Positions 1-55,653 of a stretch of 64,000 bases of DNA are shown in pieces (the first letter of the stretch is position 1; the number at the start of each line of letters is the position of its first letter). Source of the DNA: an uncultured Pelagibacteraceae bacterium (GTDB lineage: Bacteria; Pseudomonadota; Alphaproteobacteria; Pelagibacterales; Pelagibacteraceae); NCBI GenBank assembly GCA_902569415.1, contig CACFUH010000001.1, positions 5,414 through 69,413 of the forward strand. Reading direction: 5' to 3'. The notes under the pieces were generated by a model that saw nothing but the letters and a program-made list of their open reading frames with translations, made no database searches and was not told the origin of the DNA. A program made the translations under genes and the position numbers.

Positions 1-493
1 CTTGTGTCATATCAGCTGTTACGACATTACCGGCTATAATGGTTTTTGTTGGGTACTTATCTCTCACAGATTTAATAAAACTTGTAAAATGTTCTGAATA
101 ACCATTTGCAACATCTACGCAAATAAATTTTATAAATGAAAATTCTTTTAATGTTTTATCTAATCTTTCATAATCTTCTTTTTTTATTCCAATGCTTAGA
201 GATATGTTTTTATATATTGACTTTAATTTTTTATACTTTTTTAATTTACTAACATCATGTTGCTTTGTTAAACATGTAATCATACCAAAATCTGATAAGG
301 TTTCTGCAACTTCTAACTCACCAACACCATCCATATTAGCAGCCATTACTGGAATTCCTGACCATTCATTTTTGCTATATTTGAATTTATAAGTCCTTTT
401 TAAATCTACATCTTTACGACTTGATAAAGTGCTTCTTTTTGGTCTAAATAAAACATCTGAATAATCAAGTTTTAATTCTTCTTCAATTCTCAT
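1..493 (-). CDS. guaC: GMP reductase (5' part; runs off the window edge)
   Basis: Manual translation from ATG at 493: MRIEEELKLDYSDVLFRPKRSTLSSRKDV...WSGIPVMAANMDGVG, the GuaC N-terminus. Missing from the ORF track because it is truncated. Confidence 0.93.
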   Translation of the reverse strand, partial: MRIEEELKLDYSDVLFRPKRSTLSSRKDVDLKRTYKFKYSKNEWSGIPVMAANMDGVGELEVAETLSDFGMITCLTKQHDVSKLKKYKKLKSIYKNISLSIGIKKEDYERLDKTLKEFSFIKFICVDVANGYSEHFTSFIKSVRDKYPTKTIIAGNVVTADMTQ

Positions 494-554: not shown

Positions 555-582
555 TTGAAACAAAATATAAAACTATTATAAA
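555..582 (+). promoter_or_regulatory. Putative sigma70 promoter of the native tRNA-Met locus
   Basis: TTGAAA-N16-TATAAA; the -35 starts 44 nt upstream of the tRNA fragment at 599. Confidence 0.55.
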
Positions 583-598
583 TCAACAGAAATCTAAT

Positions 599-654
599 GG
601 CGGGGTAGCTCAGTTGGTTAGAGCGCGGGACTCATAAGCCCGAGGTCAGTGGTT
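599..654 (+). repeat. 5' fragment (nt 1-56) of tRNA-Met(CAT); direct repeat of 2611-2666; putative att site
   Basis: GGCGGGGTAGCTCAG...GAGGTCAGTGGTT is identical to the first 56 nt of the intact tRNA and diverges in the T-loop (AGTTAT vs CGATCC). No 3' acceptor strand or CCA. Confidence 0.95.
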
Positions 655-695
655 AGTTATCCGCTTTCTATGTACCTTATCGCAACTTCAATCCT

Positions 696-730
696 TTCTT
701 GACACACGTGTGACACAACGAAAGGAGAAA
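696..730 (+). repeat. Left arm-like repeat block (TGACACA x2, 11-bp period)
   Basis: TTCTTGACACACGTGTGACACAACGAAAGGAGAAA matches 2517-2551 at 28/35 positions, ungapped. Confidence 0.75.
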
Positions 731-766
731 AAAAGGTGACAACGGGAAACTTAAATATTTTTTTAA

Positions 767-1135
767 CTAACTTGCTAAATCTAAAATAAGTGTACTAACT
801 CCAGAAAATACCCCTAATACAATTATTGTATAAGTAACGTATCCCCATGTGGTAGATCGTTTAGTTTTTATACGTTCAGAAATATATTTTGAAGCACTTC
901 GCCATAAACCAACATAAACATAAATTAACAATACATAAAAAAATATAGTGTAAACCCAAATAAGAATTACCATTCCATCACTAACTGAAGATATAAATTG
1001 ATCATCAATTATATAGGATGGTATAGAGTAAATCCCTAGTATCACTACTGCTACAATCCAAAAACTTTTACCAAGTGAGATTTTACCATTCCAATATGTG
1101 GAAACTATATTTTTTGTTTTTTTATTTTTTTTCAT
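767..1135 (-). CDS. Hypothetical membrane protein (about 3 TM segments)
   Basis: 122-aa ORF with hydrophobic segments; motifs YWNGKISLGKSFW and VGLWRSASKY. Confidence 0.75.
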   Translation of the reverse strand: MKKNKKTKNIVSTYWNGKISLGKSFWIVAVVILGIYSIPSYIIDDQFISSVSDGMVILIWVYTIFFYVLLIYVYVGLWRSASKYISERIKTKRSTTWGYVTYTIIVLGVFSGVSTLILDLAS

Positions 1136-1289
1136 TTATATTTCTAAAATTAACTATGTTTTTTCCATTTATTCTACTAAAAAAAACTCCCTTGCTATCA
1201 CATTCTCTCCATTTGCCATAAAATGATCTATAACGTTTTCCCTCAACTTTAAATATTAGTGGATAATCTTTTTTATAAGTGTTTTTCAT
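1122..1289 (-). CDS. Small basic hypothetical protein (55 aa)
   Basis: Manual translation MKNTYKKDYPLIFKVEGKRYRSFYGKWRECDSKGVFFSRINGKNIVNFRNINEKK. Its ATG directly follows the upstream stop (1290-1292) and its end overlaps the next start. Confidence 0.5.
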   Translation of the reverse strand: MKNTYKKDYPLIFKVEGKRYRSFYGKWRECDSKGVFFSRINGKNIVNFRNINEKK

Positions 1290-1757
1290 TTAATATAATT
1301 TTTTAAGTAAATTTCTAATTCCTGAATTAGATTTTTTGTTTGTTTTATTCTTATTTTTATCTGGCAAAATACATTTTGATTTACTTGTATATCGAGTATC
1401 ATCAATAAATGATATGACCATAAAGAATTCATTTGTAATTAAATTTATATCAATTTTTGTTTCACCTATAAATTTATTTAACTCATTGTCCCAATGTTTA
1501 TGTGTTGTAGTAACTGTTTCATCATCGTAATGAATGATCTGATGGATCCGATTATGCAGTTTAACAGTGCCTGTACTAAAATTGATTGATAAATTATATG
1601 CATTGTCTCCGTAATATTTTTTCATTTCTTCTTTTGCTAAATCTGTTCTTCCATCTAATTCTACCATTCGACATCCATTTAATTTAACTATTTCTGCTTT
1701 GAGGTGTGTATTAGATAGGAACAAAGTTACCAAAATTAAAAAAGTAAATAATTTCAT
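1290..1757 (-). CDS. Hypothetical exported protein (155 aa)
   Basis: Start reassigned to ATG 1757 (MKLFTFLILVTLFLSNTHLKA, signal-peptide-like). The mature part has two Cys, one near each end of the globular region. Confidence 0.7.
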   Translation of the reverse strand: MKLFTFLILVTLFLSNTHLKAEIVKLNGCRMVELDGRTDLAKEEMKKYYGDNAYNLSINFSTGTVKLHNRIHQIIHYDDETVTTTHKHWDNELNKFIGETKIDINLITNEFFMVISFIDDTRYTSKSKCILPDKNKNKTNKKSNSGIRNLLKKLY

Positions 1758-1762
1758 AATTT

Positions 1763-1933
1763 TTATAACGACACTACAATTAGTAAAATTATTGTAAGCC
1801 AAAAAAACCATTGTATCACTAAGTCTGAGAATGATCTCGTTGTTTTTGAACTATTTTTCCATTGACCAATAAGATCTATGGTTAAAAAAATCATAATTGC
1901 AGAACCTACAACAGCAGCAATAGTTTGAATCAT
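1763..1933 (-). CDS. Small 2-TM hypothetical protein (56 aa)
   Basis: Manual translation MIQTIAAVVGSAIMIFLTIDLIGQWKNSSKTTRSFSDLVIQWFFWLTIILLIVVSL; 2-nt and 5-nt gaps to its neighbours. Confidence 0.55.
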   Translation of the reverse strand: MIQTIAAVVGSAIMIFLTIDLIGQWKNSSKTTRSFSDLVIQWFFWLTIILLIVVSL

Positions 1934-1935
1934 TT

Positions 1936-2115
1936 TTAGTGCAAAACCCTATTTAAAATATTAACAGTGATATAACGATGATTATCATCCTGAGTTATAT
2001 CTACTTCTATTTCATCATCAAGGTCACCTATAAGAGCTTCAACTATACTATATACGAATTTGTCTAATTCTTCATTAGTTGCATAATAATCAAATGTTTT
2101 TTTATAGGTTATCAC
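1936..2115 (-). CDS. Small acidic hypothetical protein (59 aa)
   Basis: GTG start abuts the upstream TAA: MITYKKTFDYYATNEELDKFVYSIVEALIGDLDDEIEVDITQDDNHRYITVNILNRVLH. Confidence 0.6.
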   Translation of the reverse strand: MITYKKTFDYYATNEELDKFVYSIVEALIGDLDDEIEVDITQDDNHRYITVNILNRVLH

Positions 2116-2469
2116 TTACAATAATTTATCTACTTTTTTACACTTATAATTTCCTGTTGATCCTTTAAAGTCATCACGATCATTATAAACTTCAAGGTTG
2201 CCTGAATATCTATTTAATATTGCATACCAGTTTATATTTTGATCAGGAATTTTAAGTATTGCATTAATTCTATCTGGAGTAACTGCAGTTATTGTCATAT
2301 ATCCTCCAAGCCAGTTATAATAAAATCTTTTCTTATTAAGATCTACTTCTACTCTTGCGTAATCTAAAATTGCTTTTGGATCTACATTTTCACATTTTAA
2401 AGATGTAGAAGCATTAACAACATTACACCACAACAAACCCAGAACCAAGATCCCTAAAAGTTTTTTCAT
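2116..2469 (-). CDS. Hypothetical exported protein (117 aa)
   Basis: Signal peptide MKKLLGILVLGLLWCNVVNA; mature domain bracketed by two Cys. TATAAT on the minus strand at 2484-2489. Confidence 0.8.
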   Translation of the reverse strand: MKKLLGILVLGLLWCNVVNASTSLKCENVDPKAILDYARVEVDLNKKRFYYNWLGGYMTITAVTPDRINAILKIPDQNINWYAILNRYSGNLEVYNDRDDFKGSTGNYKCKKVDKLL

Positions 2470-2491
2470 AATTTCTAAACGTTATTATAAA

Positions 2492-2551
2492 TCTTGACTC
2501 ACTAAAAATACATATGTTCTTGACTCACATATGACACAATAAAAAGGGAAA
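2492..2551 (+). repeat. Right arm-like repeat block (TGACWCA at 2495, 2521, 2532)
   Basis: TCTTGACTCAC occurs twice, then ATATGACACAATAAAAAGGGAAA; similar to 696-730. Confidence 0.75.
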
Positions 2552-2566
2552 TTAGACAATTCTTGA

Positions 2567-2594
2567 TTGCTTAAAAAATAAAAAGTATTATATA
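2567..2594 (+). promoter_or_regulatory. Island-borne promoter for the intact tRNA-Met
   Basis: TTGCTT-N16-TATATA, with the -35 exactly 44 nt upstream of the tRNA, the same geometry as 555-582. Confidence 0.55.
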
Positions 2595-2610
2595 TCAATA
2601 CGAATTAGAT

Positions 2611-2687
2611 GGCGGGGTAGCTCAGTTGGTTAGAGCGCGGGACTCATAAGCCCGAGGTCAGTGGTTCGATCCCACTTCCCGCTACCA
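2611..2687 (+). tRNA. tRNA-Met(CAT), elongator type
   Basis: Cloverleaf: GGCGGGG/TCCCGCT acceptor stem, loop CT-CAT-AA, GGTTCGAT T-loop, ACCA end. G1 rather than the initiator C1. Confidence 0.93.
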
Positions 2688-2690
2688 AAT

Positions 2691-3395
2691 TTATCTTATA
2701 ATTTTTTTTAATTTTGCCAAATTCATAGTTTGATTTAGTGGAAAATCTAAAACTTTTTTGGCTCTAATTTTTTTGACTTTTGAATTATTTTTTTTCGCAA
2801 ATGAATAAACTGATTGCGATCTTCCACCTACATTTAAAATTCCTTTTTGTTTCAAGATTTTTGGTAACATTTTCACCAAATCATCATGAAACATAAAATT
2901 AGTTTTTAGATTTAAAAAAGCTTTTTTATGTAAAAAAGGTTTTTCAGTCATAGTAATTCTTAAGATCAAAGAATTACTATACATTGCCACTGCGCATTCT
3001 CCCCCAAGTTTTGATAGACCATAATTATTAAACGGTTTTACAGGATCACTTTCAGAGTAATTTCCTTTTACACCCTCATAAACGTAACCTGTAGAAAAAT
3101 ATACTAGTTTAATATTATACTTTTTGCATATTTTGGTAATATTAGCTGTTCCAATAATATTTAAATCAATACTTTTTGAAATATTTTTTTTATGTAAATT
3201 CATAGGTCTAGATAGACCTGCAGTATGCATAATTATTTTAGGTTTTACTTTTTTTATACAATTTTCGATTGATTTTAAATTCATAATATTTAATTCTTTT
3301 TTTGATTTAAAAATTAAATTTAAAAATTTATTTTCTTTTTTCAAAACTTTTGAAAAACGACCATCACCCCCAGTAACTAAAATTTTTTGATTCAT
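2691..3395 (-). CDS. rmlD: dTDP-4-dehydrorhamnose reductase-like protein (short RmlD)
   Basis: ILVTGGDG nucleotide-binding loop, YFST, YGLSK catalytic motif; last gene of the rml cluster. Confidence 0.75.
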   Translation of the reverse strand: MNQKILVTGGDGRFSKVLKKENKFLNLIFKSKKELNIMNLKSIENCIKKVKPKIIMHTAGLSRPMNLHKKNISKSIDLNIIGTANITKICKKYNIKLVYFSTGYVYEGVKGNYSESDPVKPFNNYGLSKLGGECAVAMYSNSLILRITMTEKPFLHKKAFLNLKTNFMFHDDLVKMLPKILKQKGILNVGGRSQSVYSFAKKNNSKVKKIRAKKVLDFPLNQTMNLAKLKKIIR

Positions 3396-5849: not shown

Positions 5850-6710
5850 ATGGATTTAAATCTTAACAACATTACATTTATAATAGTTACCTACAAGAGT
5901 CATAACGTTATTTTTAATTGTCTCAACTCACTTCCAAGAAATTCTAATAAAATCGTAATAGAAAATTCTAAAGACATTAATTTAAAAAAAGATTTAGAGT
6001 CAAAATATGACAACATTGAGGTAATTTTAAATGAAAATATTGGTATGGGTGCTTCAAATAATATTGGTATTATAAAATCTAAAACAAAATATGCTTATAT
6101 AATAAATCCAGATGCTACCTTTAAAAGTGATACTTTTGAAAAGTTAATAAAATCTACCGAAGCAATAAATGATTTTGCTATTCTATCCCCAGTTAATAGT
6201 AATTCAAACTATCCTAATTTTAAAAATAAAATAACATCAAAATTTGATAAGGAAGATATTTTTGAAGTTGATACAATTGATGGATTTTCAATGTTGCTAA
6301 ATAAAGAAAAATTTCATAATGAAGATTTGTTTGATGAAAATATTTTTTTATATCTTGAAAATGATGATCTTTGTTTAAGAACAAAAAAAAAGAATGAGAA
6401 AATATATATTATTAATAATTCTATAATTGATCATATTGGCGCTTCATCTTCTAATTTTAATCAAAATAAAGAAATTGAATATTTAAGAAATTGGCATTGG
6501 ATGTGGTCAAAATTTTATTTTAACAAAAAACATAAAGGGTATTTGAATGCATTTTTTAAAATTTTTTTCAATTTAATTTCAGCAAAAATTAAATTTGTTT
6601 ATTATTTTTTAACCTTTAATTCACATAAAAAAAAAATCTATCAAATGAGAATTTTAGGTTTACTAAACTCTATGCTTTTAAAAAAATCTTTTTATAGATT
6701 AGAAGACTAA
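5850..6710 (+). CDS. GT2 glycosyltransferase (rhamnosyltransferase-like)
   Basis: IIVTY, NIGMGASNN, INPD, FDENIFLYLENDDLC. ATG 5850 preferred over TTG 5838. Confidence 0.85.
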   Translation: MDLNLNNITFIIVTYKSHNVIFNCLNSLPRNSNKIVIENSKDINLKKDLESKYDNIEVILNENIGMGASNNIGIIKSKTKYAYIINPDATFKSDTFEKLIKSTEAINDFAILSPVNSNSNYPNFKNKITSKFDKEDIFEVDTIDGFSMLLNKEKFHNEDLFDENIFLYLENDDLCLRTKKKNEKIYIINNSIIDHIGASSSNFNQNKEIEYLRNWHWMWSKFYFNKKHKGYLNAFFKIFFNLISAKIKFVYYFLTFNSHKKKIYQMRILGLLNSMLLKKSFYRLED

Positions 6711-7234
6711 TGTCCAGGGAACTCAATTAAGTTTTCAACTTTGTGACCTAATTTAATTAGTTTATCACAACCACCTAGATCAAAAAGATTTATAACAAAA
6801 ATAAATCCTGAAACAGATCCTTTTGATATTGTAACTAGTTTTGCAGCTGCTTCGGCTGTACCGCCTGTAGCTATTAAATCGTCAATAATTAAAACTGAAT
6901 CATTTTCTTTAATTGAATCTTTATGAACCTCTATAGTTGCAGTTCCATATTCTAATTCGAAATCGACTGAATGAGATTCTGCTGGAAGTTTGTTTTTTTT
7001 TCTTAGCAAAATAAAAGGTTTGTTTAGTATATAAGATACCGCTGATGCAAATACAAAACCTCTTGATTCAATAGCCGCTATCTTATCTACCTTAAATTTT
7101 TTAGTTCTCTCAACTATTTGATCAATACATTCTTTAAAAGCTTTTTCATTTTTAATTAATGTTGTTATGTCCCTAAAAAGAATTCCTTTTTTTGGATAAT
7201 CTTTAATTGATCTAATATAATCTTTTAAATCCAT
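6707..7234 (-). CDS. apt: Adenine phosphoribosyltransferase
   Basis: DYPKKGILFRDIT, IESRGF, LEYG, LIIDDLIATGGT. Start reassigned to ATG 7234 (MDLKDY). Confidence 0.96.
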   Translation of the reverse strand: MDLKDYIRSIKDYPKKGILFRDITTLIKNEKAFKECIDQIVERTKKFKVDKIAAIESRGFVFASAVSYILNKPFILLRKKNKLPAESHSVDFELEYGTATIEVHKDSIKENDSVLIIDDLIATGGTAEAAAKLVTISKGSVSGFIFVINLFDLGGCDKLIKLGHKVENLIEFPGH

Positions 7235-7275
7235 AATAAATTGCGATATATAAATAAATAAATTATTTTTTTGAT

Positions 7276-8148
7276 ATGGCAAACAATAAATTAGCAATAA
7301 TTGGTGGTAGTGGCCTATATGATGTTGAGGAATTTAAAGAAAGAGAACTCTTAGATCTAAATACACCTTGGGGAAAGCCTTCTGATCAAATCTTAAAAAC
7401 AAATTATAATAATAAAGAAGTCTATTTTTTACCTAGACATGGAAAAGGGCACTTTATCAATCCTTCAAATATTAATTTTAGAGCTAATATTGATTCTTTA
7501 AAACAATTGGGTGTTACGGACATTGTATCAGTATCAGCAGTTGGGTCTTTAAAAGAAGATTTGCCTCCTGGAAAGTTTGTAATAGTTGATCAATTTATCG
7601 ATAGAACATTTGCAAGAAATAAAACTTTTTTTGATGATGAAATTGTCGCTCATGTTTCTATGGCGCATCCAACATCTAATGGGTTAATGAACGCATGTGA
7701 AGAGGCTATTAAAAAAGAAAGTATAGAGTATCAAAGAGGTGGAACTTATGTTGTTATGGAAGGACCACAATTTTCAACACTTGCCGAGTCCAATTTATAT
7801 AGATCATGGAAAGCTGATGTAATCGGTATGACTAATATGCCAGAAGCTAAATTAGCAAGAGAAGCTGAAATTAGATACGCATCAGTTTCAATGATAACTG
7901 ATTATGATTGTTGGCACCCAGATCATAAAAATGTTGATGTTCAGCAAGTAATTAAAGTTCTTTTAGGAAATGCTGCTAAAGCAAAAAATATGATTAAAAA
8001 TTTAATTGAAAATTTTGAAAACCATATAGATCCAAAAGATCCAACAAACAATTGTTTGGATGTTGCAATAATAACTGCGCCTGAAAAAAGATCTCAAAAA
8101 ACTAAAGATAAATTAAAAACAATTGCAGGAAGAGTTTTACTTAAATGA
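7276..8148 (+). CDS. mtnP: S-methyl-5'-thioadenosine phosphorylase
   Basis: IIGGSG, TPWGKPS, PRHG, NFRANI, EGPQFST, GMT, TDYDCW. Confidence 0.95.
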   Translation: MANNKLAIIGGSGLYDVEEFKERELLDLNTPWGKPSDQILKTNYNNKEVYFLPRHGKGHFINPSNINFRANIDSLKQLGVTDIVSVSAVGSLKEDLPPGKFVIVDQFIDRTFARNKTFFDDEIVAHVSMAHPTSNGLMNACEEAIKKESIEYQRGGTYVVMEGPQFSTLAESNLYRSWKADVIGMTNMPEAKLAREAEIRYASVSMITDYDCWHPDHKNVDVQQVIKVLLGNAAKAKNMIKNLIENFENHIDPKDPTNNCLDVAIITAPEKRSQKTKDKLKTIAGRVLLK

Positions 8149-9053
8149 AAAAAATATTTTTACTTTTATCTATTTTATTATTTTGTACAAATGTCCTTGC
8201 AGATAAAATGACCAAAGATGGTTTTTTGAGCAACAAAAATGGTTATGCCAAAGATCAAAAAATAAAGGATCCAGAGAATAAAATTTTATTAATTTATAAC
8301 CATGGACAAAATAGTCACGATGGTCCCTCCAATGACTGCGTATGGAAGGGTGGTATGAAAAACATGGCATCCTTAGTCGGTAAAAAAATAAAAGAAAAAG
8401 AGGTATTAGTTTATATATTTTGCACTGGCAAACTTAAAGGAGATGATTACAAAAGACTATGGAATAAAAAAAAGTTTAAAGAGCCATATAAAGGCAAGCC
8501 AAAGCTTGAAAAAAGATTAGATGCAAATTTAAAACTAATTGATAATTTTGTGAACGAAGGCTTCAAAAAAAATCAAATATTTATAACAGGAAGATCTTGT
8601 GGTGGATGGATGACAATGATGTTATTAGCAAGGCATCAAAATACTTTAGCCGGGGGTATATCTTTTGTTCCTGAGTGTTATGGTAAATTAAGTAAAACAT
8701 ATAAAGTAAAAAAAGTTGGTGTTGAAGAAGCATTAAAAAAATTTAGAAAAAAAGATGGTCCAGGACCAGCAGATATGAGGCAAATGCAAATTAATGAAAT
8801 TATTAAGAGTAAAAATTTACCAGTTTTAGTTTTTACACATCCAAAAGATCCTTTTGGTGGATTGCTTTCCGACTGGGTAGAGAAAGCCGCGGGAGTTGAA
8901 AGAATAGTAGTTTCGGAAGATAATAAAATAAACGGAAAAAGTTGTAAAGTATGGGGAGAATCAATTAAAAATTATCATGACATAGATAGAGCTACTTGTT
9001 TTAAGGAATTTAATCCAAAGATTTTAGATTTTATTGCATCAAAAATTAATTAA
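8145..9053 (+). CDS. Exported alpha/beta-hydrolase-like protein
   Basis: N-terminal signal peptide, IYNHG, nucleophile elbow GRSCGG, later KDPF and YHD as candidate Asp/His. Confidence 0.65.
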   Translation: MKKIFLLLSILLFCTNVLADKMTKDGFLSNKNGYAKDQKIKDPENKILLIYNHGQNSHDGPSNDCVWKGGMKNMASLVGKKIKEKEVLVYIFCTGKLKGDDYKRLWNKKKFKEPYKGKPKLEKRLDANLKLIDNFVNEGFKKNQIFITGRSCGGWMTMMLLARHQNTLAGGISFVPECYGKLSKTYKVKKVGVEEALKKFRKKDGPGPADMRQMQINEIIKSKNLPVLVFTHPKDPFGGLLSDWVEKAAGVERIVVSEDNKINGKSCKVWGESIKNYHDIDRATCFKEFNPKILDFIASKIN

Positions 9054-10124
9054 ATGAAAATAGAAGGTAAAGAATATCGTACTATCTGGTTTGAAAATAA
9101 TGTTGTAAAAATTATTGACCAAACAAAGCTTCCACACCAATTTATAATTAAAGATCTTAAAACTTTGAAAGATGCAATTAACGCTATAAAAATTATGGAA
9201 GTTAGAGGAGCTCCTTTAATTGGTGCAACAGCTGCATATGGTCTAGTTCTTTCAATCATAGAAAATAATGATCAATCATTTTTAAAAAAATCAGCAGAAG
9301 ATCTGATTAATTCAAGACCAACCGCAATAAATTTGAAATGGGCGGTTGATAGAATGATGAACAAATTATCAGGTGTAAATAGTGATAAAATTTTAGAAAT
9401 AGCATTAAATGAAGCAAAAGAAATATGTGAAGAAGATATTAAATTTTGCGAAAATATTGGATTAAATGGTCTTAAAATAATTGAAGAAATTTATAATAAA
9501 AAAAAAGATACAGTAAATATATTAACCCATTGCAACGCTGGATGGCTTGCAACGATTAATTGGGGAACTGCAACTTCTCCGATTTATCATGCACACAAAA
9601 AAGGAATACCAGTTCATGTTTGGACTGATGAGACAAGGCCCAGAAATCAAGGAGCTAATTTAACTTCTTATGAATTAAATGAGGAGAATGTACCCAATAC
9701 TATTATTGCAGATAATACTGGGGGTATTTTAATGCAAAGAGGTGAGGTTGATATGTGCATTGTTGGAACAGATAGAACATTGGCTAATGGCGATGTTTGT
9801 AATAAAATTGGAACTTACCTAAAGGCATTAGCAGCTCATGATAATAAAATTCCTTTTTATGTTGCGTTACCAAGCTCAACAATAGATTGGAATATTAAAG
9901 ATTATAAAGATATTCCAATTGAAGAAAGAAATTCAGAAGAACTTTCTCATGTTGAAGGTTTAGATGAAAATGGAAATATTAAAAAAATACAAATATATCC
10001 AAAAAAAAGTAAGTCATTGAACTTAGCTTTTGATGTAACACCTGCAAAATATGTTACAGGATTAATTACTGAAAAAGGTGTATGTGAAGCATCAGAAAAA
10101 GGATTAAAGGATTTATTTAAATGA
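9054..10124 (+). CDS. mtnA: Methylthioribose-1-phosphate isomerase
   Basis: DQTKLP, VRGAPLIG, SRPTAINL, LTHCNAG, DETRPRNQG, NKIGT, FDVTP. Confidence 0.96.
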   Translation: MKIEGKEYRTIWFENNVVKIIDQTKLPHQFIIKDLKTLKDAINAIKIMEVRGAPLIGATAAYGLVLSIIENNDQSFLKKSAEDLINSRPTAINLKWAVDRMMNKLSGVNSDKILEIALNEAKEICEEDIKFCENIGLNGLKIIEEIYNKKKDTVNILTHCNAGWLATINWGTATSPIYHAHKKGIPVHVWTDETRPRNQGANLTSYELNEENVPNTIIADNTGGILMQRGEVDMCIVGTDRTLANGDVCNKIGTYLKALAAHDNKIPFYVALPSSTIDWNIKDYKDIPIEERNSEELSHVEGLDENGNIKKIQIYPKKSKSLNLAFDVTPAKYVTGLITEKGVCEASEKGLKDLFK

Positions 10125-10786
10125 AAAATATTAAAGAAAGAGAAGACATAATTAAATTTGCTCTTATGTTGAATACTACAAATTTATCTCCTCTTAGATC
10201 AGGAAATCTTTCAATAAGAGTAATAGAAAATGATGTTGAAGGGTTTCTTCTTACACCTTCGGGCATCAAATATGAAACTCTTAAACCAGAAGATATTGTT
10301 TTTCTTGCTCTAGATGAAAAATATGACAATCTTAAAATGTTTAATTCTGGATTGAATCCATCTTCTGAATGGCGTTTTCATCAAGATGTTTATATAAAAA
10401 AAAGAGAAGCAAAAGCAATTGTTCATGCTCATTCTCCTCATGCAACTGCAGTTTCAACTCATGGTAAATCAATTCCAGCATTTCACTATATGGTCGCTTT
10501 AGCTGGAGGAGACGATATAAAATGTGCCGAATATGCAACCTTTGGTACACCAGATTTATCAATTAATATTATAAAAGCTTTAGAAAAGAGAAAAGGTTGT
10601 CTAATGTCAAATCATGGACAAATAACTATCGGTGGAACTTTAAAGCAAGCTTTTGAATTAGCACAAGAGATAGAAAATATTTGTCATCAATACATAATTG
10701 CATTAAAATTAGGACAACCTAAGATTCTTTCATCTACTGAGATGAGTAAAATCTTGGACAAAATAATTCATTATAAAAAGGGTTAA
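10121..10786 (+). CDS. Class II aldolase (FucA/Ald2-like)
   Basis: SGNLS, TPSG, PSSEWRFH, VHAHSPH, FHYMVALAGG, NHG. Confidence 0.88.
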   Translation: MKNIKEREDIIKFALMLNTTNLSPLRSGNLSIRVIENDVEGFLLTPSGIKYETLKPEDIVFLALDEKYDNLKMFNSGLNPSSEWRFHQDVYIKKREAKAIVHAHSPHATAVSTHGKSIPAFHYMVALAGGDDIKCAEYATFGTPDLSINIIKALEKRKGCLMSNHGQITIGGTLKQAFELAQEIENICHQYIIALKLGQPKILSSTEMSKILDKIIHYKKG

Positions 10787-10811
10787 CTTTTTATAATTTA
10801 TAGAGGGAGAT

Positions 10812-11852
10812 ATGATTAAAGTAGGGGAGCATATTACTCTAGATATAATTGGCACTAAGAAAGAATACGATGCATCTTTCTTCGAAAGCCTAGTTCATAA
10901 AATTGCAGAAAAAGCCAAAGTAACAGTTTTAAATATTGCAAAATATAAATTTGAACCCCAAGGTTTTACTTTAGTGGCTTTGTTAGCAGAAAGTCATATT
11001 AGTTTTCACACATATCCAGAAAAAGGAATAATTAGTTTTGATTTTTATACTTGTGGAACAGTTGCCCCATCAATTGCTTTAGATGTTTTAAAAAAAGAGA
11101 TTGAACATAAAAGAATAATTAAAAAAGAGTTAAATAGAGATACAATTTCTTTTTATTATGACAACACAAGCACAAAAGGACTGCAAAAAAATTATCTTGT
11201 AAAAGAAGTTATAGAGGATTTCAAATCTAAAGTTGGTCAGCATATAGAGATACTAGATTTAGTGGAATATGGTAAATCGTTATTTATAGATGGGGATTTA
11301 CAAGTGGCCGAGAGTGATGAACATTTGTATAGTGGAACATTCGTAAATTCTGCAATGAAACTCAATAAAAGCAAAGATAGGGCTGCTATTATTGGTGGAG
11401 GGGACGGAGGTGTTGCAAGAGAGTGTATAGCAAAAGGATTTGGGTTTATTGATTGGTACGAATTAGATCCTGAAGTTGTTGAAGTTTGTAAAAAACATAT
11501 TGGATCTATAGGTAAAAATGCTACTGAGAAAAATTCTGTAAAATGTGTTTGGGGAGATGCCTTTGAAAGTATCAAAAAAGTTGAAGACGATAGTTATGAT
11601 AAAATATTTATTGATTTAAACGACGATCAATTCTGTATTGATTTAGCAGCTAAAAATATGAATTCATTAGTTAGAATTCTTAAACCTGATGGAGTGATAA
11701 CAGCACAAGTTGGAAGTCAAGACAAAAAACCAAAACAAGTAGATAATTGGTTAGATGTTTTTAACAAAAATTTTGGTAATGCTACCTTAGATAGAGTATA
11801 TATCCCAAGCTTCGATAGTTCTTGGAACTTTTACTCATCAATTAATCATTAA
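10812..11852 (+). CDS. S-adenosylmethionine decarboxylase-spermidine synthase fusion (SpeD-SpeE)
   Basis: N-terminal FEPQG...LLAESHISFHTYPE (SpeD cleavage motif ESH); C-terminal IIGGGDGG, ELDPEVV, GDAF. SD-like AGAGGGAG upstream. Confidence 0.92.
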   Translation: MIKVGEHITLDIIGTKKEYDASFFESLVHKIAEKAKVTVLNIAKYKFEPQGFTLVALLAESHISFHTYPEKGIISFDFYTCGTVAPSIALDVLKKEIEHKRIIKKELNRDTISFYYDNTSTKGLQKNYLVKEVIEDFKSKVGQHIEILDLVEYGKSLFIDGDLQVAESDEHLYSGTFVNSAMKLNKSKDRAAIIGGGDGGVARECIAKGFGFIDWYELDPEVVEVCKKHIGSIGKNATEKNSVKCVWGDAFESIKKVEDDSYDKIFIDLNDDQFCIDLAAKNMNSLVRILKPDGVITAQVGSQDKKPKQVDNWLDVFNKNFGNATLDRVYIPSFDSSWNFYSSINH

Positions 11853-11922
11853 TTTTATCTTTTTAAATCTGAAATTTTGTGGAATAATAAGTTTTAATTA
11901 ATATTAATTACGGGGGAAAATA

Positions 11923-12786
11923 ATGAAATTGAAAAAAATCATATTAAGTGTTTTTGCTTCTTTATTTCTTTTTAGTTCAACCCTATCTGCAGATACTATT
12001 AGAATTGCAACAGAGGGCGCTTACCCTCCGTGGAACTCTAAATCTGAAGATGGAAAACTAATTGGATTTGAAGTTGAACTTGCAAACTGGCTATGTATCT
12101 ACATGGAAAGAGATTGCAAAATCGTTGAACAGGATTGGGATGGAATGATCCCTGCATTAAGAATGAGAAAATACGATGCTATAATGGCAGGTATGTCTAT
12201 CACTGATGAAAGAAAAAAAGTTATAACTTTTTCTCAAGGTTATGCTGACGAAGTTGCATCACTTGCAGTAATGAAAGGTTCTGACCTAGAAGGTATGGAT
12301 ACTCCTGAAGGTATAAATTTATCTTTAGGCGGCAAAGATGTTAAAGCTGCTCTTAAAACTATTACAGGAGCTTTAGCTGGTAAAACTGTTTGTACACAAA
12401 CTGGAACTATTCACCAAAACTTTTTAGAGTCAGGAGATGTAGGATCAGTTGATGTTAGAACTTACAAAACTCAAGATGAGGTTAACCTAGATTTATCTGC
12501 TGGTAGATGCGATGCAGCGTTAGCTGCAGCTGTAGCATTTACTGATTATGCTGAAAAATCTGGAAAAGATGTTGTGTTAGTTGGACCAACTTTCTCTGGT
12601 GGACACTTTGGAAACGGAGTAGGTGTTGGTTTAAGACAAGAAGCACAATTTGGTTCAGACTCTGCTCTTGGACAAAGAGATGCTCAACTACTTAAAGATT
12701 TCAATAAAGCTATTGATCAAGCAAGAAAAGCTGGAAAAATTAGTGAACTTGCAACTAAGTGGTTTGGTTTCGACGCATCAATGTAA
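11923..12786 (+). CDS. Polar amino-acid ABC transporter substrate-binding protein (Arg/Lys/Orn/octopine family)
   Basis: Signal peptide, ATEGAYPPWN, QDWDGMIPAL, GMSITDER. Confidence 0.9.
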   Translation: MKLKKIILSVFASLFLFSSTLSADTIRIATEGAYPPWNSKSEDGKLIGFEVELANWLCIYMERDCKIVEQDWDGMIPALRMRKYDAIMAGMSITDERKKVITFSQGYADEVASLAVMKGSDLEGMDTPEGINLSLGGKDVKAALKTITGALAGKTVCTQTGTIHQNFLESGDVGSVDVRTYKTQDEVNLDLSAGRCDAALAAAVAFTDYAEKSGKDVVLVGPTFSGGHFGNGVGVGLRQEAQFGSDSALGQRDAQLLKDFNKAIDQARKAGKISELATKWFGFDASM

Positions 12787-12797
12787 ATTTAAAATTT

Positions 12798-12824
12798 AAA
12801 AGGCGGTTATTTTAACCGCCTTTT
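12798..12824 (+). terminator. Intercistronic terminator-like hairpin
   Basis: AAAAGGCGGTTA-TTT-TAACCGCCTTTT, a perfect 12-bp inverted repeat. Confidence 0.75.
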
Positions 12825-12827
12825 ACC

Positions 12828-13520
12828 ATGGAATTAATATCATTTGGAGATAACGGTTGGGGTGATGAGCTATTTGTAGCCACGCTCATGACAATTGCTG
12901 TTGCAATTACAGCAATGTTAATTGGTTTTTTATTTGCATTATTATTTACTCCTTTAAAATTATCAAAATATAAAATTTTAAATTTAATTGCTAATTTTTA
13001 CACTACAGTTGTGAGAGGAGTACCTGAGCTTTTGGTTATTTATCTTTTCTTTTTTGGGGGAAGTGGAGCCATAATGTATGTTGCTCAGATTTTTGGTTAT
13101 TATGATTATATTGAAATAAACGCTTTTTTAACTGGTGCTATTTCAATTGGAATTATTTCAGGCGCTTATTCTACAGAAGTTTTTAGAGGAGCAATTCAAT
13201 CAATAGACAAAGGTCAGTTCGAGGCCTGTCATGTTTTAGGTTTAAAAAAGTATATATATTTTTTCAAAGTAATTATGCCTCAAATGTTAAGACTTGCGAT
13301 ACCAAATCTAAGTAATGTTTGGCAAATAACTTTAAAAGATACATCTTTAATTTCTGTTACTGGATTAGTTGAGATTATGAGACAATCTTACATTGCAGCA
13401 GGATCAACAAGAGATCCACTTTTCTTTTATTCTTTCGCTGCACTTTTGTATTTAATGCTCACCTATTTAAGTATGAAATTTATTAACAGATTAGAAAAAA
13501 ACTATAGCAGAGGATATTGA
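12828..13520 (+). CDS. Amino-acid ABC transporter permease (HisQ/OccQ-like)
   Basis: RGVPEL, GAYSTEVFRGA, GQFEA, LKDTSL. Confidence 0.92.
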   Translation: MELISFGDNGWGDELFVATLMTIAVAITAMLIGFLFALLFTPLKLSKYKILNLIANFYTTVVRGVPELLVIYLFFFGGSGAIMYVAQIFGYYDYIEINAFLTGAISIGIISGAYSTEVFRGAIQSIDKGQFEACHVLGLKKYIYFFKVIMPQMLRLAIPNLSNVWQITLKDTSLISVTGLVEIMRQSYIAAGSTRDPLFFYSFAALLYLMLTYLSMKFINRLEKNYSRGY

Positions 13521-52287: not shown

Positions 52288-52373
52288 GCCCTCGTGGTGA
52301 AATTGGTAGACACAAAGGACTTAAAATCCTTGCCCTTTTGGGAGTGCCAGTTCGAGTCTGGCCGAGGGCACCA
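52288..52373 (+). tRNA. tRNA-Leu(TAA)
   Basis: GCCCTCG/CGAGGGC acceptor stem, AAGGA-CTTAAAA-TCCTT, long variable arm, CCA. Confidence 0.95.
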
Positions 52374-52378
52374 CTAAT

Positions 52379-53146
52379 ATGAATAAACCAGTAATTATTT
52401 CTGACTCAAACAAAAAATCATTAAAGATAAAATCTTTTCTTGTTAGAAATCTGAAAATCCTATCATCCAAATCAAAAGTAGTAATTGTAATTGGAGGTGA
52501 TGGTTTTATGCTTAAAACATTAAAGCAAAATAAAGGTTCATCAAAATTATTTTATGGAATAAATTCAGGCAATTATGGTTTTTTGATGAATAAATTTTCA
52601 CCAAAGCATACAATAAAAAATTTTTCAAAAGCTAAGATGATTACGATATCTCCTTTAGAATTAGTTGTAAAAAATAAAACGGGATTAAAAAAGAAATCGA
52701 TTGCAATAAACGAAGTTTCAATTTTAAGACAAAGTCGACAGGCTGCTTCTCTATCAATTCAAACCGGAACAAAAACTATTATTAAGAGATTAATATCAGA
52801 CGGTGTTTTGGTATCTACTCCAGCAGGCAGTACAGCTTACAACTTATCAGTTCATGGACCTATTTTGAGTTTACATTCAAAAAAACTTTCTATCTCACCA
52901 ATAAGTGCATTTAGACCAAGAAGATGGAAAGGTAAAATTATAAGTGATAAATCAATTGTAAAAATAAAAAATTTAAATCCTAAAAAAAGACCAATCAGTG
53001 CTGTAGCTGATAATTTAGAATTTAGAAATGCAAAAACAGTTACAGTAAAAACTAATAAAAAAATTAAATTTAATTTACTTTACGATTCTAATAGAAGTCT
53101 TCAAAAAAAAATTAAACTAGAACAAATAAGAAGAGAAACTTCTTAA
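52379..53146 (+). CDS. nadK: NAD kinase
   Basis: GGDGFML, GNYGFL, NEV, DG...STPAGSTAYNLS. Confidence 0.93.
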   Translation: MNKPVIISDSNKKSLKIKSFLVRNLKILSSKSKVVIVIGGDGFMLKTLKQNKGSSKLFYGINSGNYGFLMNKFSPKHTIKNFSKAKMITISPLELVVKNKTGLKKKSIAINEVSILRQSRQAASLSIQTGTKTIIKRLISDGVLVSTPAGSTAYNLSVHGPILSLHSKKLSISPISAFRPRRWKGKIISDKSIVKIKNLNPKKRPISAVADNLEFRNAKTVTVKTNKKIKFNLLYDSNRSLQKKIKLEQIRRETS

Positions 53147-53222
53147 TGGTGCCCCCGCACGGATTCGAACCGCGGACCTATTGATTACAAATCAATTGCT
53201 CTACCAGCTGAGCTACAAGGGC
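53147..53222 (-). tRNA. tRNA-Thr(TGT)
   Basis: Reverse complement GCCCTTGTAGCTCAG...ATTGA-TTTGTAA-TCAAT...GGTTCGAATCC...GGGGGCACCA. Confidence 0.95.
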
Positions 53223-53251
53223 TTGTTGAATATTTATTAATATTTTTTAAA

Positions 53252-53998
53252 CTAATCAAGATCTTTTTTTCTTTTCATTATGTTATGAAACGCAATAGCA
53301 GCACTATTTGATATATTTAAGCTTTCTATTTTTTGATTAATTTCTATTTTAACTGCAAAGTCAATATATTTTTCAGTATGTTTTTTTATACCGAAACCCT
53401 CTGAACCAAAAAGAAGTATGTTATTTCCCTTCCATTCAATTTCAGTAAAATCTTTTTTACTTTTTGAATCAAAGCCATAGACCCAAAAGTTTTTTTCTCT
53501 CAGGGATTTTAAAGTGGTATTTATATTTGCAACTTTAAAAATATTAACTTCCTCCATACTACCACTTGCAGATTTGTACATCAATTTACTTTCATCAGGG
53601 AAATGTCTATCTTTAACTATAATTCCATCAATATTAAATGATGCTGCACTTCTTATTACTGATCCTATATTTCTTGGATCAGTTACTTCATTTAAGCAAG
53701 CTAAAGTTAAATTGTTTTTATTTTTGATAAATTCTTTTAAAACTAATTCATCTAGATGTTCTACCTCAGCGACATAACCTTGATGAAGTAATTCTTCATT
53801 TCCAACATATTTATCTAATTCTTTTTTAGTCTTAAAATATATTTTAACACTTTTAAGTAGATCTTTTTTAGAATTTTCTCTGTGTATATTTTTTTTGCTT
53901 TCCTCAGTTAAAAAAACTCTTAAGACCCTTCGATTTGTATTTTTTAAAGCCCCTATAACCGCATGTTTGCCTATAATAAAAAATGATCTTTTATTCAT
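53252..53998 (-). CDS. rlmB: TrmH/RlmB family rRNA methyltransferase
   Basis: HQG, TDPRNIGSVIRSA, GSEGFG, ESLNIS. Confidence 0.85.
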   Translation of the reverse strand: MNKRSFFIIGKHAVIGALKNTNRRVLRVFLTEESKKNIHRENSKKDLLKSVKIYFKTKKELDKYVGNEELLHQGYVAEVEHLDELVLKEFIKNKNNLTLACLNEVTDPRNIGSVIRSAASFNIDGIIVKDRHFPDESKLMYKSASGSMEEVNIFKVANINTTLKSLREKNFWVYGFDSKSKKDFTEIEWKGNNILLFGSEGFGIKKHTEKYIDFAVKIEINQKIESLNISNSAAIAFHNIMKRKKDLD

Positions 53999-54052
53999 AA
54001 ATTTTATTGCTTTTTACATGTTTTTTTACTTATTTTCTCACTATTTCTCGTA

Positions 54053-54080
54053 TTGCATTTATGCAATAAAAATATATAAA
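54053..54080 (+). promoter_or_regulatory. Putative promoter of the tRNA-tuf-rpoBC cluster
   Basis: TTGCAT-N16-TATAAA; the -35 lies inside the perfect inverted repeat TATTGCAT-TT-ATGCAATA. Confidence 0.55.
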
Positions 54081-54132
54081 CCGCTTGTTGTTTAAAGCTT
54101 TATTGAACAAGGGGACGCTTCCCCTGCGAAAA

Positions 54133-54218
<86 letters not shown>

Positions 54219-54260
54219 TTTAATTTTGTTTTAAATAATATTGGAGTGAACTTGGGTGTT

Positions 54261-54334
54261 GCGGGTGTAGTTCAATGGTAGAACGCTAGCCTTCCAAGCT
54301 GGATGTAAGGGTTCGATTCCCTTTACCCGCTCCA
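54261..54334 (+). tRNA. tRNA-Gly(TCC)
   Basis: GCGGGTG/TACCCGC acceptor stem, CT-TCC-AA loop, TCCA end. Confidence 0.95.
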
Positions 54335-54378
54335 AAAATTATAAAAAAAAAGAAAAAGGAAAAAGAGGTAAAAATATA

Positions 54379-55569
54379 ATGTCGAAAGAAAAGTTTGTAA
54401 GAAATAAACCGCACTGTAACATTGGTACAATCGGTCACGTCGATCACGGTAAAACAACTTTAACGGCCGCTATAACTAAAGTTCTATCTGAAAGTGGTGG
54501 TGCGAATTTTGTTGCTTATGATCAAATAGATAAAGCCCCTGAAGAAAAAGAGAGAGGGATAACAATATCAACAGCACACGTAGAGTATGAAACTGAAAAA
54601 AGACACTACGCTCACGTTGACTGCCCAGGTCATGCTGACTATGTGAAAAATATGATCACAGGTGCAGCACAGATGGATGGAGCAATCTTAGTTGTTAATG
54701 CTGCTGATGGTCCTATGCCTCAAACAAGAGAGCATATTCTTTTGGCAAGACAAGTTGGAGTTCCGGCAATAGTTGTTTACTTAAATAAAGTAGATCAAGT
54801 TCAAGATAAAGAATTAATTGATCTTGTTGAAGAAGAAATAAAAGAACTATTAACTTCATATAAATTTCCTGGAGACAAAACACCAATTATCAAAGGATCA
54901 GCTTTAAATGCAGTCGAAGGAAAAGACGAAGCAACTGGAAAAAACTCTATTATGGAATTAATGAAAGCAGTTGATGAATTTATACCACAACCAGATAGAC
55001 CAAAAGACAAACCTTTTTTAATGCCAGTAGAAGATGTATTCTCTATTTCTGGAAGAGGAACAGTTGTAACCGGAAGAGTAGAATCTGGAGTTATAAAAAC
55101 TGGAGAAGAAATAGAAATAGTTGGTATAAGAGACACAAAAAAATCAGTTTGTACTGGTGTAGAAATGTTTAGAAAACTTTTAGATACAGGAGAAGCTGGT
55201 GACAATATTGGAGCTCTATTAAGAGGTGTAGAAAGAACTGATGTCGAAAGAGGCCAAGTATTGTGTAAACCTGGTTCAGTTACTCCACATACAAAATTTG
55301 AAGCTCAAGCATATGTACTTAAAAAAGAAGAAGGAGGAAGGCACACACCATTCTTTACCAAGTACAGACCACAGTTTTATTTTAGAACTACAGACGTAAC
55401 AGGAGAAGTTGAATTACCTTCTGGAACTGAAATGGTAATGCCAGGTGATGATGCTAAGTTTACAGTAAAATTAATTACACCAATCGCAATGAGTGAAAAA
55501 TTAAATTTTGCCATTAGAGAAGGTGGAAGAACTGTTGGAGCTGGAGTAGTAACTAAGATTATAGAGTAA
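54379..55569 (+). CDS. tuf: Elongation factor Tu
   Basis: [22 protein letters not shown]. Confidence 0.99.
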
Positions 55570-55577
55570 GCTCCCAT

Positions 55578-55653
55578 AGGAGTGTAGCTCAATTGGTAGA
55601 GCGCCGGTCTCCAAAACCGGAGGTTGGGGGTTCGATTCCCTCCGCTCCTGCCA
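55578..55653 (+). tRNA. tRNA-Trp(CCA)
   Basis: AGGAGTG/CGCTCCT acceptor stem, CCGGT-CTCCAAA-ACCGG; canonical tuf-trpT-secE position. Confidence 0.95.

Follow-up and report, generated by a model that had tools for sequence, protein, structure and literature searches.

A 2-kb integrase-less cassette in a tRNA-Met gene of Pelagibacteraceae, probably derived from a phage satellite and framed by arm-type repeats

Cis-mobilizable elements (CIMEs; PMC5704250) come from conjugative or mobilizable elements, have lost their integration and transfer genes, keep both attachment sites (attL and attR), accrete in tandem at one target gene and ride in cis (here and below, statements on published sources refer to the text accessible for each). 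Marine phage satellites, among them the integrative mobile elements of Pelagibacter that are encapsidated in virions (VEIMEs; PMC9618062) and the tycheposons, which are like phage-inducible chromosomal islands (bioRxiv 10.1101/2020.12.28.424599), are defined by their integrase and target tRNA genes, and the pelagiphages of the HTVC019P group document 5'-end cores, as SAR11 tRNA genes are rebuilt by a phage-borne 5' part (bioRxiv 10.1101/410191). In addition, gMED GI-20, a Pelagibacter island of 1,925 bp with a tRNA-Met repeat at its bounds, has been read as a gene-cassette insertion (PMC11796062). A 2026 preprint on complete Arctic genomes calls it unresolved how SAR11, which has hardly any mobile elements, renews its large flexible gene pool. 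Here we analyse a cassette of about 2 kb in the tRNA-Met gene between guaC and an rmlD-family gene, in a stretch of 64,000 nucleotides (the window) from an uncultured Pelagibacteraceae bacterium (assembly GCA_902569415.1, contig CACFUH010000001.1, positions 5,414 to 69,413).

The duplication of tRNA-Met around the cassette is a real feature of this genome. Nucleotides 1-56 of the gene recur exactly, as a preliminary description of the window had stated, and the exact repeat reaches 58 bp when two common upstream bases are counted, the copies being 2,012 bp apart. The incomplete copy is the only partial tRNA copy in the assembly (874 kb, 46 contigs, 65% complete), among 22 tRNA genes and the tmRNA checked. 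That it occupies the native position, as also proposed earlier, is borne out by the relatives: the guaC-promoter junction found matches in 19 of 400 other genomes of the genus, and in 12 of these tRNA-Met lies directly behind the same promoter, intact in 11 and as a 5' piece followed by an integrase in one (G268; genomes carry G numbers and loci L numbers). The remaining seven have no tRNA at that distance. In G338 (L354) the site is cleanly empty and reads guaC, tRNA, rmlD, rmlC, rmlA. Upstream of the two copies in the window the similarity continues for about 37 bp, the promoter (88% over 93 nt). A replacement promoter thus likely comes with the element, and the intact gene on the right is predicted to be a hybrid of an element-borne 5' half and a host 3' half. 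A promoter-like match falls at 2563-2591, but the scan of the window was overall not above chance (15 promoter-like sequences against 14.2 expected; one terminator-like, 648-665, against 0.6), and an Rfam scan of the cassette ends returned tRNA and no other structured RNA. The target is likely the elongator gene, because an initiator-type tRNA is located on contig C14 and relatives have a third CAT tRNA.

Just inside both cassette ends lies a doublet of repeats with an 11-bp period (TTGACACAC..TGACACA), which the preliminary description had missed, as it had the tRNA promoter at the right end and the left-over integrase ribosome-binding site. The 22-nt repeat at 697-718 and 2518-2539 is absent elsewhere in the window (0 expected, 100 shuffles) and in the assembly. 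Across the 401 genomes of the genus the doublet occurs in 33, against two control matches; of the 29 non-self loci returned, 27 also have a tRNA gene or part of one (Met, Thr, Gly, Leu or Arg), and 31 of 32 named records with the same sites bear Pelagibacter or Pelagibacteraceae in their titles. Other cassette families at tRNA-Met have doublets of their own, always identical at both ends, and in three families the end repeat matches the repeat before an integrase at tRNA-Met. As in a lambda-type attachment site, repeated arm sites flank the core on both sides at fixed spacing, and attL and attR, each with core and arms, appear from their sequence to be retained. In our view, the cassette is probably a non-autonomous satellite derivative that a helper integrase moves via the arm repeats. 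A site-specific origin is very likely, and continued movement by a borrowed integrase is likely rather than proven.

The same doublet also frames cassettes at tRNA-Thr(TGT), tRNA-Gly(GCC) and tRNA-Leu(TAA) (L114, L118-L122, L124), and accompanies integrases at tRNA-Gly (G316, with one stop) and tRNA-Arg (G240). Four marine phage contigs (L052, L059, L064 and L071) have tRNA-Thr(GGT) beside it, L052 and L071 with a 312-aa integrase-like open reading frame (ORF).

The geometry of these sites points to one crossover for both polarities of insertion. Among 173 sequence-unique sites, picked by a pattern that demands core and arm and leaves only the gap free (50-60 bp allowed), core and arm are separated by 55 bp in 155, by 56 bp in 16, including the window, and by 54 bp in two, and the gap is the same in sites with a 5' piece, a full gene, a 3' piece or the loop only. 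At the right ends, the distance from doublet to core is 89 bp for the 3' type (15 of 16 ends) and 121-122 bp for the 5' type (all 19), a difference of about three helical turns. Stem bases 29 and 43 are paired in 83 of 85 intact genes and mismatched in 16 of 33 5' pieces with A29 (Fisher p 0.025, with kin included, so that the events are not independent), as would be expected of hybrids cut between those bases; this brackets the crossover to tRNA nt 29-43 and fits an exchange in the 7-base anticodon loop. That loop is reportedly a known sublocation of integration (Williams, 2002). Since both types share core and arm spacing, the 'reverse polarity' of the cassette likely reflects only which tRNA half is carried, and the 5'-end duplication, which the preliminary description had set apart, is not borne out as a separate mechanism. 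Its link of 5'-part sites to tycheposons also found no counterpart in the accessible text of the tycheposon preprint (bioRxiv 10.1101/2020.12.28.424599). These data indicate that 5' and 3' duplication of a tRNA gene can be two solutions on one crossover.

If such cassettes are exchanged, relatives should differ at the site rather than all share the six cargo ORFs, and empty sites, other cargo in the same ends and stacked cassettes were all found. A survey of tRNA-Met covered 90 genomes of the genus, of which 69 matched the tRNA and 12 of those had partial copies; all 12 were examined. Their loci hold cassettes of 1.5-2.3 kb with mostly unrelated, signal-peptide-bearing cargo, five with a 5' and two with a 3' duplication. 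The stretch contains an integrase in only one of the 12, so island finders that depend on an integrase miss most of them. Tandem stacks have complete arm-core-arm joints (L034, L182, L330 and L307). In L322 (AG-390-I22) the left end is 100% identical to that of the window over 121 bp and the right end 96% over 258 bp, around other cargo and in flanking DNA that is only 72-74% identical to this genome; L306 and L318 are similar cases. In contigs of three metagenome runs, 688-1349 is followed by 713 different bases in place of 1,125 bp and then by the right end, which implies that cargo is also replaced inside the frame, and left ends switch type right after the doublet.

The preliminary description had advised a search for recombinase genes beside the same tRNA-Met fragment, and these were found. 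The core-plus-doublet pattern occurs at no fewer than 138 metagenome loci (about 290 estimated) and 32 genome loci; in three of the matches listed (L199, L240 and L319) a full-length integrase comes immediately after the tRNA-Met 5' piece with this doublet, and others have a partial integrase. The three proteins are tyrosine integrases of about 330 aa, 67-78% alike, with the catalytic R-K-H-R-H-Y set intact. In a structural model of the L319 protein, the N-terminal part folds into a sheet of three strands and a helix, as in the arm-binding layout that PMC8138268 describes, and its Foldseek alignment with lambda integrase is full-length; integrases of this type are thus predicted to carry arm-binding, core-binding and catalytic domains, the Pfam arm domain being matched at sub-threshold level only. 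A second integrase, of 316 aa and beside a tRNA-Met piece in G090, has relatives in 25 of the 401 genomes, and in most of these a tRNA piece and a repeat lie ahead of the gene, together with a ribosome-binding site. Complete elements with the 5' duplication stand at tRNA-Met in G307 (4.5 kb) and, at the guaC site and in the polarity of the window, in G268 (5.5 kb, integrase-primase-terminase). L319 and G268 carry primase/polymerase and small terminase genes, a phage-satellite-like gene set, and G307 a primase; no conjugation gene was noticed in the parent elements read. One left end forms a decay series, from an intact integrase in L240 through a broken one in L182 (1.8-kb cassette) to none in L320. 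At L069, a phage attachment site has two such doublets beside an Arm-DNA-bind_2 integrase.

Neither integrase query matched the single-contig genomes G064 and G277, which have cassettes; together with the rarity of L319-type integrases, this makes it likely that the helper is a rare visitor. It is probably the integrase of a phage satellite rather than a gene resident in the chromosome. A profile of related integrases had no match in the assembly, and no resident recombinase was found there, which at 65% completeness is not proof of absence. Mobilisation in trans by a recombinase encoded elsewhere, as first suggested, is thus supported with respect to satellite integrases, which match, and not to a resident chromosomal source; the mobilisation itself we infer. 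Among viral contigs, the repeat leads to 21 loci of mixed origin, the G090 integrase to 22 distant loci, and the tRNA piece to two phage loci with another repeat type.

Side observations concern other integrases at this gene. On phage contigs L073 (2263-3851) and L072 a complete tRNA-Met adjoins a 424-aa integrase, with a repeat of another type; this phage appears from its sequence to use the same tRNA-Met gene. A second tRNA-Met integrase family has the opposite orientation and a one-letter variant of the repeat (L125-L130; G090, G216, G300, G395, G444 and G377), and G090 has two tRNA 3' pieces in inverted arrangement.

The cassette may have arisen and moved as follows. Internal deletion would have removed the genes for integrase, primase and terminase from a parent satellite, and cargo would have been taken up between the inward promoter with its signal-peptide frame and the left arm. 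A 2,012-bp circle, reading arm, promoter, tRNA 5' half, anticodon loop and arm, would recombine with the gene at the anticodon loop. Because the circle brings promoter and 5' half, the complete gene would re-form on the right, and only a dead piece would remain behind the host promoter; sister cassettes would contribute the 3' half instead, through the same crossover. The integrase would be supplied, in trans or in tandem, by a satellite that is present only transiently, cargo inside the frame would also be swapped, probably by homologous recombination, and a helper capsid or a vesicle are candidates for the carrier between cells. If true, this provides a testable route of gene swapping for the supposedly mobile-element-free Pelagibacter, for which substrate, predicted crossover, arm sites and candidate enzymes are now named, and rare satellites may drive the turnover of many integrase-less cassettes.

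Several observations weigh against mobilisation by a helper integrase. No integrase with more than 50% identity to that of L319 occurs in the 401 genomes, and this integrase had no match among viral contigs. Arm type and integrase N-terminal domain are not cleanly matched, since domains 80% identical go with different repeats. XerC and XerD were not even found in the 65%-complete assembly, so a resident helper may exist here. No packaging signal was identified, and neither an excised circle nor a circle junction was seen, nor a terminal repeat in 129 metagenome loci. The preliminary description had proposed looking for such a junction; among the joints shown for four metagenome runs there is none, which is uninformative as short contigs cannot bridge the 58-bp repeat, and RNA runs matched at most 5% of words. 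The choice of the 173 sites by a pattern containing core and arm belongs here too. Finally, a perfect TTGACA opens the repeat, whose conservation could thus owe something to promoter function as well.

The alternative that survives best, and that we consider unlikely, is that a satellite integrated once and decayed, leaving a dead scar whose ends are now mere homology blocks for ordinary homologous replacement of cargo. The metagenome contigs that keep both ends and the two left ORFs around the 713-base replacement, the switch of left ends after the doublet, the rarity of matching integrases and the 2026 Arctic Pelagibacter preprint, which favours homologous replacement, all agree with it. It does not account well for ends that stay nearly identical in other flanking contexts and in a host only 72-74% alike, for both arms at exact spacing across many cargo types, for 11 of the 12 sites at this promoter being empty, or for the tandem stacks with full arm-core-arm joints.

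Very unlikely, for the cassette, is that the repeats are promoter or regulator sites for cargo expression and not recombinase sites. Besides the TTGACA, the position of the doublet in the arrays described below, better conserved there than the core, speaks for such a role, and promoter function is more plausible for the arrays than for the cassette of the window: sister families pair repeats without TTGACA at both ends, the left doublet of the window precedes no forward ORF, and spacing to the tRNA core is fixed on both sides. Insertion by the host XerC/XerD, as for Xer-exploiting elements, is more improbable still. In complete Pelagibacter genomes no other site-specific recombinases are common (2026 Arctic preprint), but simple Xer-type recombinases have no arm-binding domain (PMC8138268), dedicated integrases lie behind the same core and repeat, and Xer-using islands target dif, not tRNA genes (PMC4383910). 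An amplification or assembly chimera, to which the fragmented assembly and the lack of a single public contig spanning the whole cassette might point, is largely refuted and has almost no probability left, because the same ends occur in independent genomes and metagenomes, the variant cassette is joined in contigs of three metagenome runs, and a 99% identical copy of one cargo protein is found on 29 contigs.

A related arrangement was found in arrays of single-gene units. The anticodon loop plus one doublet is all that is present at 110 of the 173 sites, and these loop-only sites head units of about 700 bp, each with one secreted-type ORF of about 190 aa. Two of four arrays (L310/L317 and L315/L316) stand apart from every tRNA gene identified in the stretches examined. 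The proteins are divergent paralogues with two conserved cysteines. A doublet stands upstream of 30 of 35 family ORFs in the four arrays, of which the search pattern matched only nine, and it is placed 37-40 bp before the start codon, with conservation of 90-100% against 50-80% for the core. Neighbours are mostly 30-40% alike and the best match of 58 of 63 units is in another array. This speaks for units gathered from a pool, and on the same count an origin of the arrays by recent tandem duplication was rejected. Because the doublet may serve as a promoter too, and conservation of the core is weaker, present mobility of the arrays is less certain, and that the array doublets are promoter or regulator sites is quite possible, if not the reading we favour. 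No integrase match was obtained at the array loci. Although the model of an array protein is confident (predicted local distance difference test, pLDDT, 95.5), the protein has no sequence match in the PDB, Foldseek gave E 0.006 or worse, and the best Z of 6.8 (root-mean-square deviation 4.9, 130 aligned residues, RhsI1 immunity protein) is tied with DcrB/PsbP-like folds; with structural matches this weak, we claim no function. A lone family member, G000:C4:49244-49885, has no doublet upstream. We offer only tentatively, as a rather doubtful extension, that there is a population-wide, integron-like exchange built from satellite parts, in which visiting satellites would lend the integrase, cassettes with two arms, such as that of the window, would pass in and out of tRNA-Met with either polarity, and single-gene units with one arm would join rows of up to about 14, even away from tRNA genes, from a shared ocean pool of secreted-protein genes.

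By the features tested, the cassette would work like a CIME built from a marine phage satellite, and is not itself a satellite, tycheposon, Islander island or integron. It resembles CIMEs in having lost integration and transfer genes (no such ORF, the left-over ribosome-binding site and the decay series), in its attachment sites and in tandem accretion, whereas its parent looks satellite-like, without conjugation genes seen, and it carries its own tRNA promoter and 5' half. The likely parents agree with VEIMEs and tycheposons in tyrosine integrase, primase/polymerase, small terminase (two of three) and tRNA targets, but the 2-kb element of the window has no integrase, primase or terminase of its own, and hence neither the integrase nor the replication module present in G268, G307 and L319. 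The HTVC019P group differs in its targets (tRNAs Cys, Leu and Arg), in consisting of whole phages with their own integrase, and in that 'arm' is absent from the main text of its preprint. An intact tRNA gene and its fragment bound the cassette, as the Islander definition (PMC4383910) asks, but Islander's filter for an encoded tyrosine integrase would reject it. The arrays share with integron cassette arrays the single-ORF units in rows, a conserved site for each and a shared pool; in contrast, they have no attC boxes, consistent hairpin or nearby IntI, their site being the tRNA anticodon loop plus arm doublet. The attC box pattern was present in none of 20 sites, folding z ranged from -2.9 to +2.1 and was near 0 at the window ends, and the L319 integrase scored 23.7 bits against the 265-bit IntI cut-off. 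A 1.9-kb tRNA-Met cassette is already in print as gMED GI-20, where the accessible text gives no arm sites, polarity, helper integrase or mechanism; arm sites, matching integrase, shared geometry and arrays were not found described in the accessible literature, including 2026 preprints and PMC10872708 (the search covered neither subscription papers, nor the journal version of the tycheposon work, nor bioRxiv supplements).

Table 1. Features of the cassette and its flanks (window positions), followed by the related arrays (positions in the named locus)
Feature	Position	Strand	Remarks
guaC (GMP reductase), 5' part	2..493	-	host flank
Host tRNA-Met promoter region	555..598	+	TTGAAA 555-560, TATAAA 577-582; now before the broken copy; putative function, from sequence
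Left junction (attL), tRNA-Met nt 1-56	599..654	+	predicted crossover in anticodon loop 631-637
Left arm-type doublet, two 11-bp-period repeats	699..717	+	56 bp past tRNA nt 44; putative integrase binding
Left-over integrase ribosome-binding site	718..738	+	no integrase behind; same letters before G307 integrase start (L147/L334)
Conserved GGGAA word	736..750	+	25 bp after arm; in 34/40 left ends without forward ORF, 0/111 with
Cargo ORF, 122 aa	767..1135	-	hydrophobic; family of unnamed marine proteins
Cargo ORF, 55 aa	1122..1289	-	no family
Cargo ORF, 173 aa	1290..1811	-	155 aa from likely start 1757, signal-peptide-like; no family
Cargo ORF, 56 aa	1763..1933	-	hydrophobic
Cargo ORF, 59 aa	1936..2115	-	51% homologue in 3'-type cassette of G172
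Cargo ORF, 117 aa	2116..2469	-	signal-peptide-like start common to unrelated cargo elsewhere
TATAAT box	2484..2489	-	15 bp before first cargo start; likely inward promoter, from sequence
Third, single arm-type repeat	2494..2502	+	seen in 22/32 right ends listed
Right arm-type doublet	2520..2538	+	121 bp before core
Putative element-supplied replacement promoter region for tRNA	2563..2610	+	88% like host promoter region
Right junction (attR), intact tRNA-Met(CAT), likely elongator	2611..2687	+	predicted crossover 2643-2649
rmlD-family gene	2691..3395	-	host flank
Array, about 9 units	L105 (G217:C41) 6400-13100
Array, 4 units	G277, L106 6900-9700		before 5'-type cassette
Array, about 14 units	L310/L317		Uisw_127
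Array, about 9 units	L315/L316

All six ORFs between the tRNA copies read on the minus strand and gave no Pfam, PHROGs or NCBIfam family at cut-off, in agreement with the earlier statement that no recombinase ORF lies there; atlas matches were hypothetical proteins only. ORFs reading inward at a distance of 46-50 bp from the right doublet frequently have a signal-peptide start in common, their mature parts being unrelated. Many contigs match the first 13 codons of the rightmost ORF (window 2430-2469) and diverge to either side of them, and this start, which opens many unrelated cargo genes, looks like a shared signal-peptide module. The GGGAA word appears where cargo reads toward that end, and is found reversed after the cargo stop at the right end of L035. 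Elsewhere in the window, the Leu-Thr-Tyr-Gly-Trp tRNA cluster at 52288-55653 has no partial copies; G078 has cassettes in that cluster.

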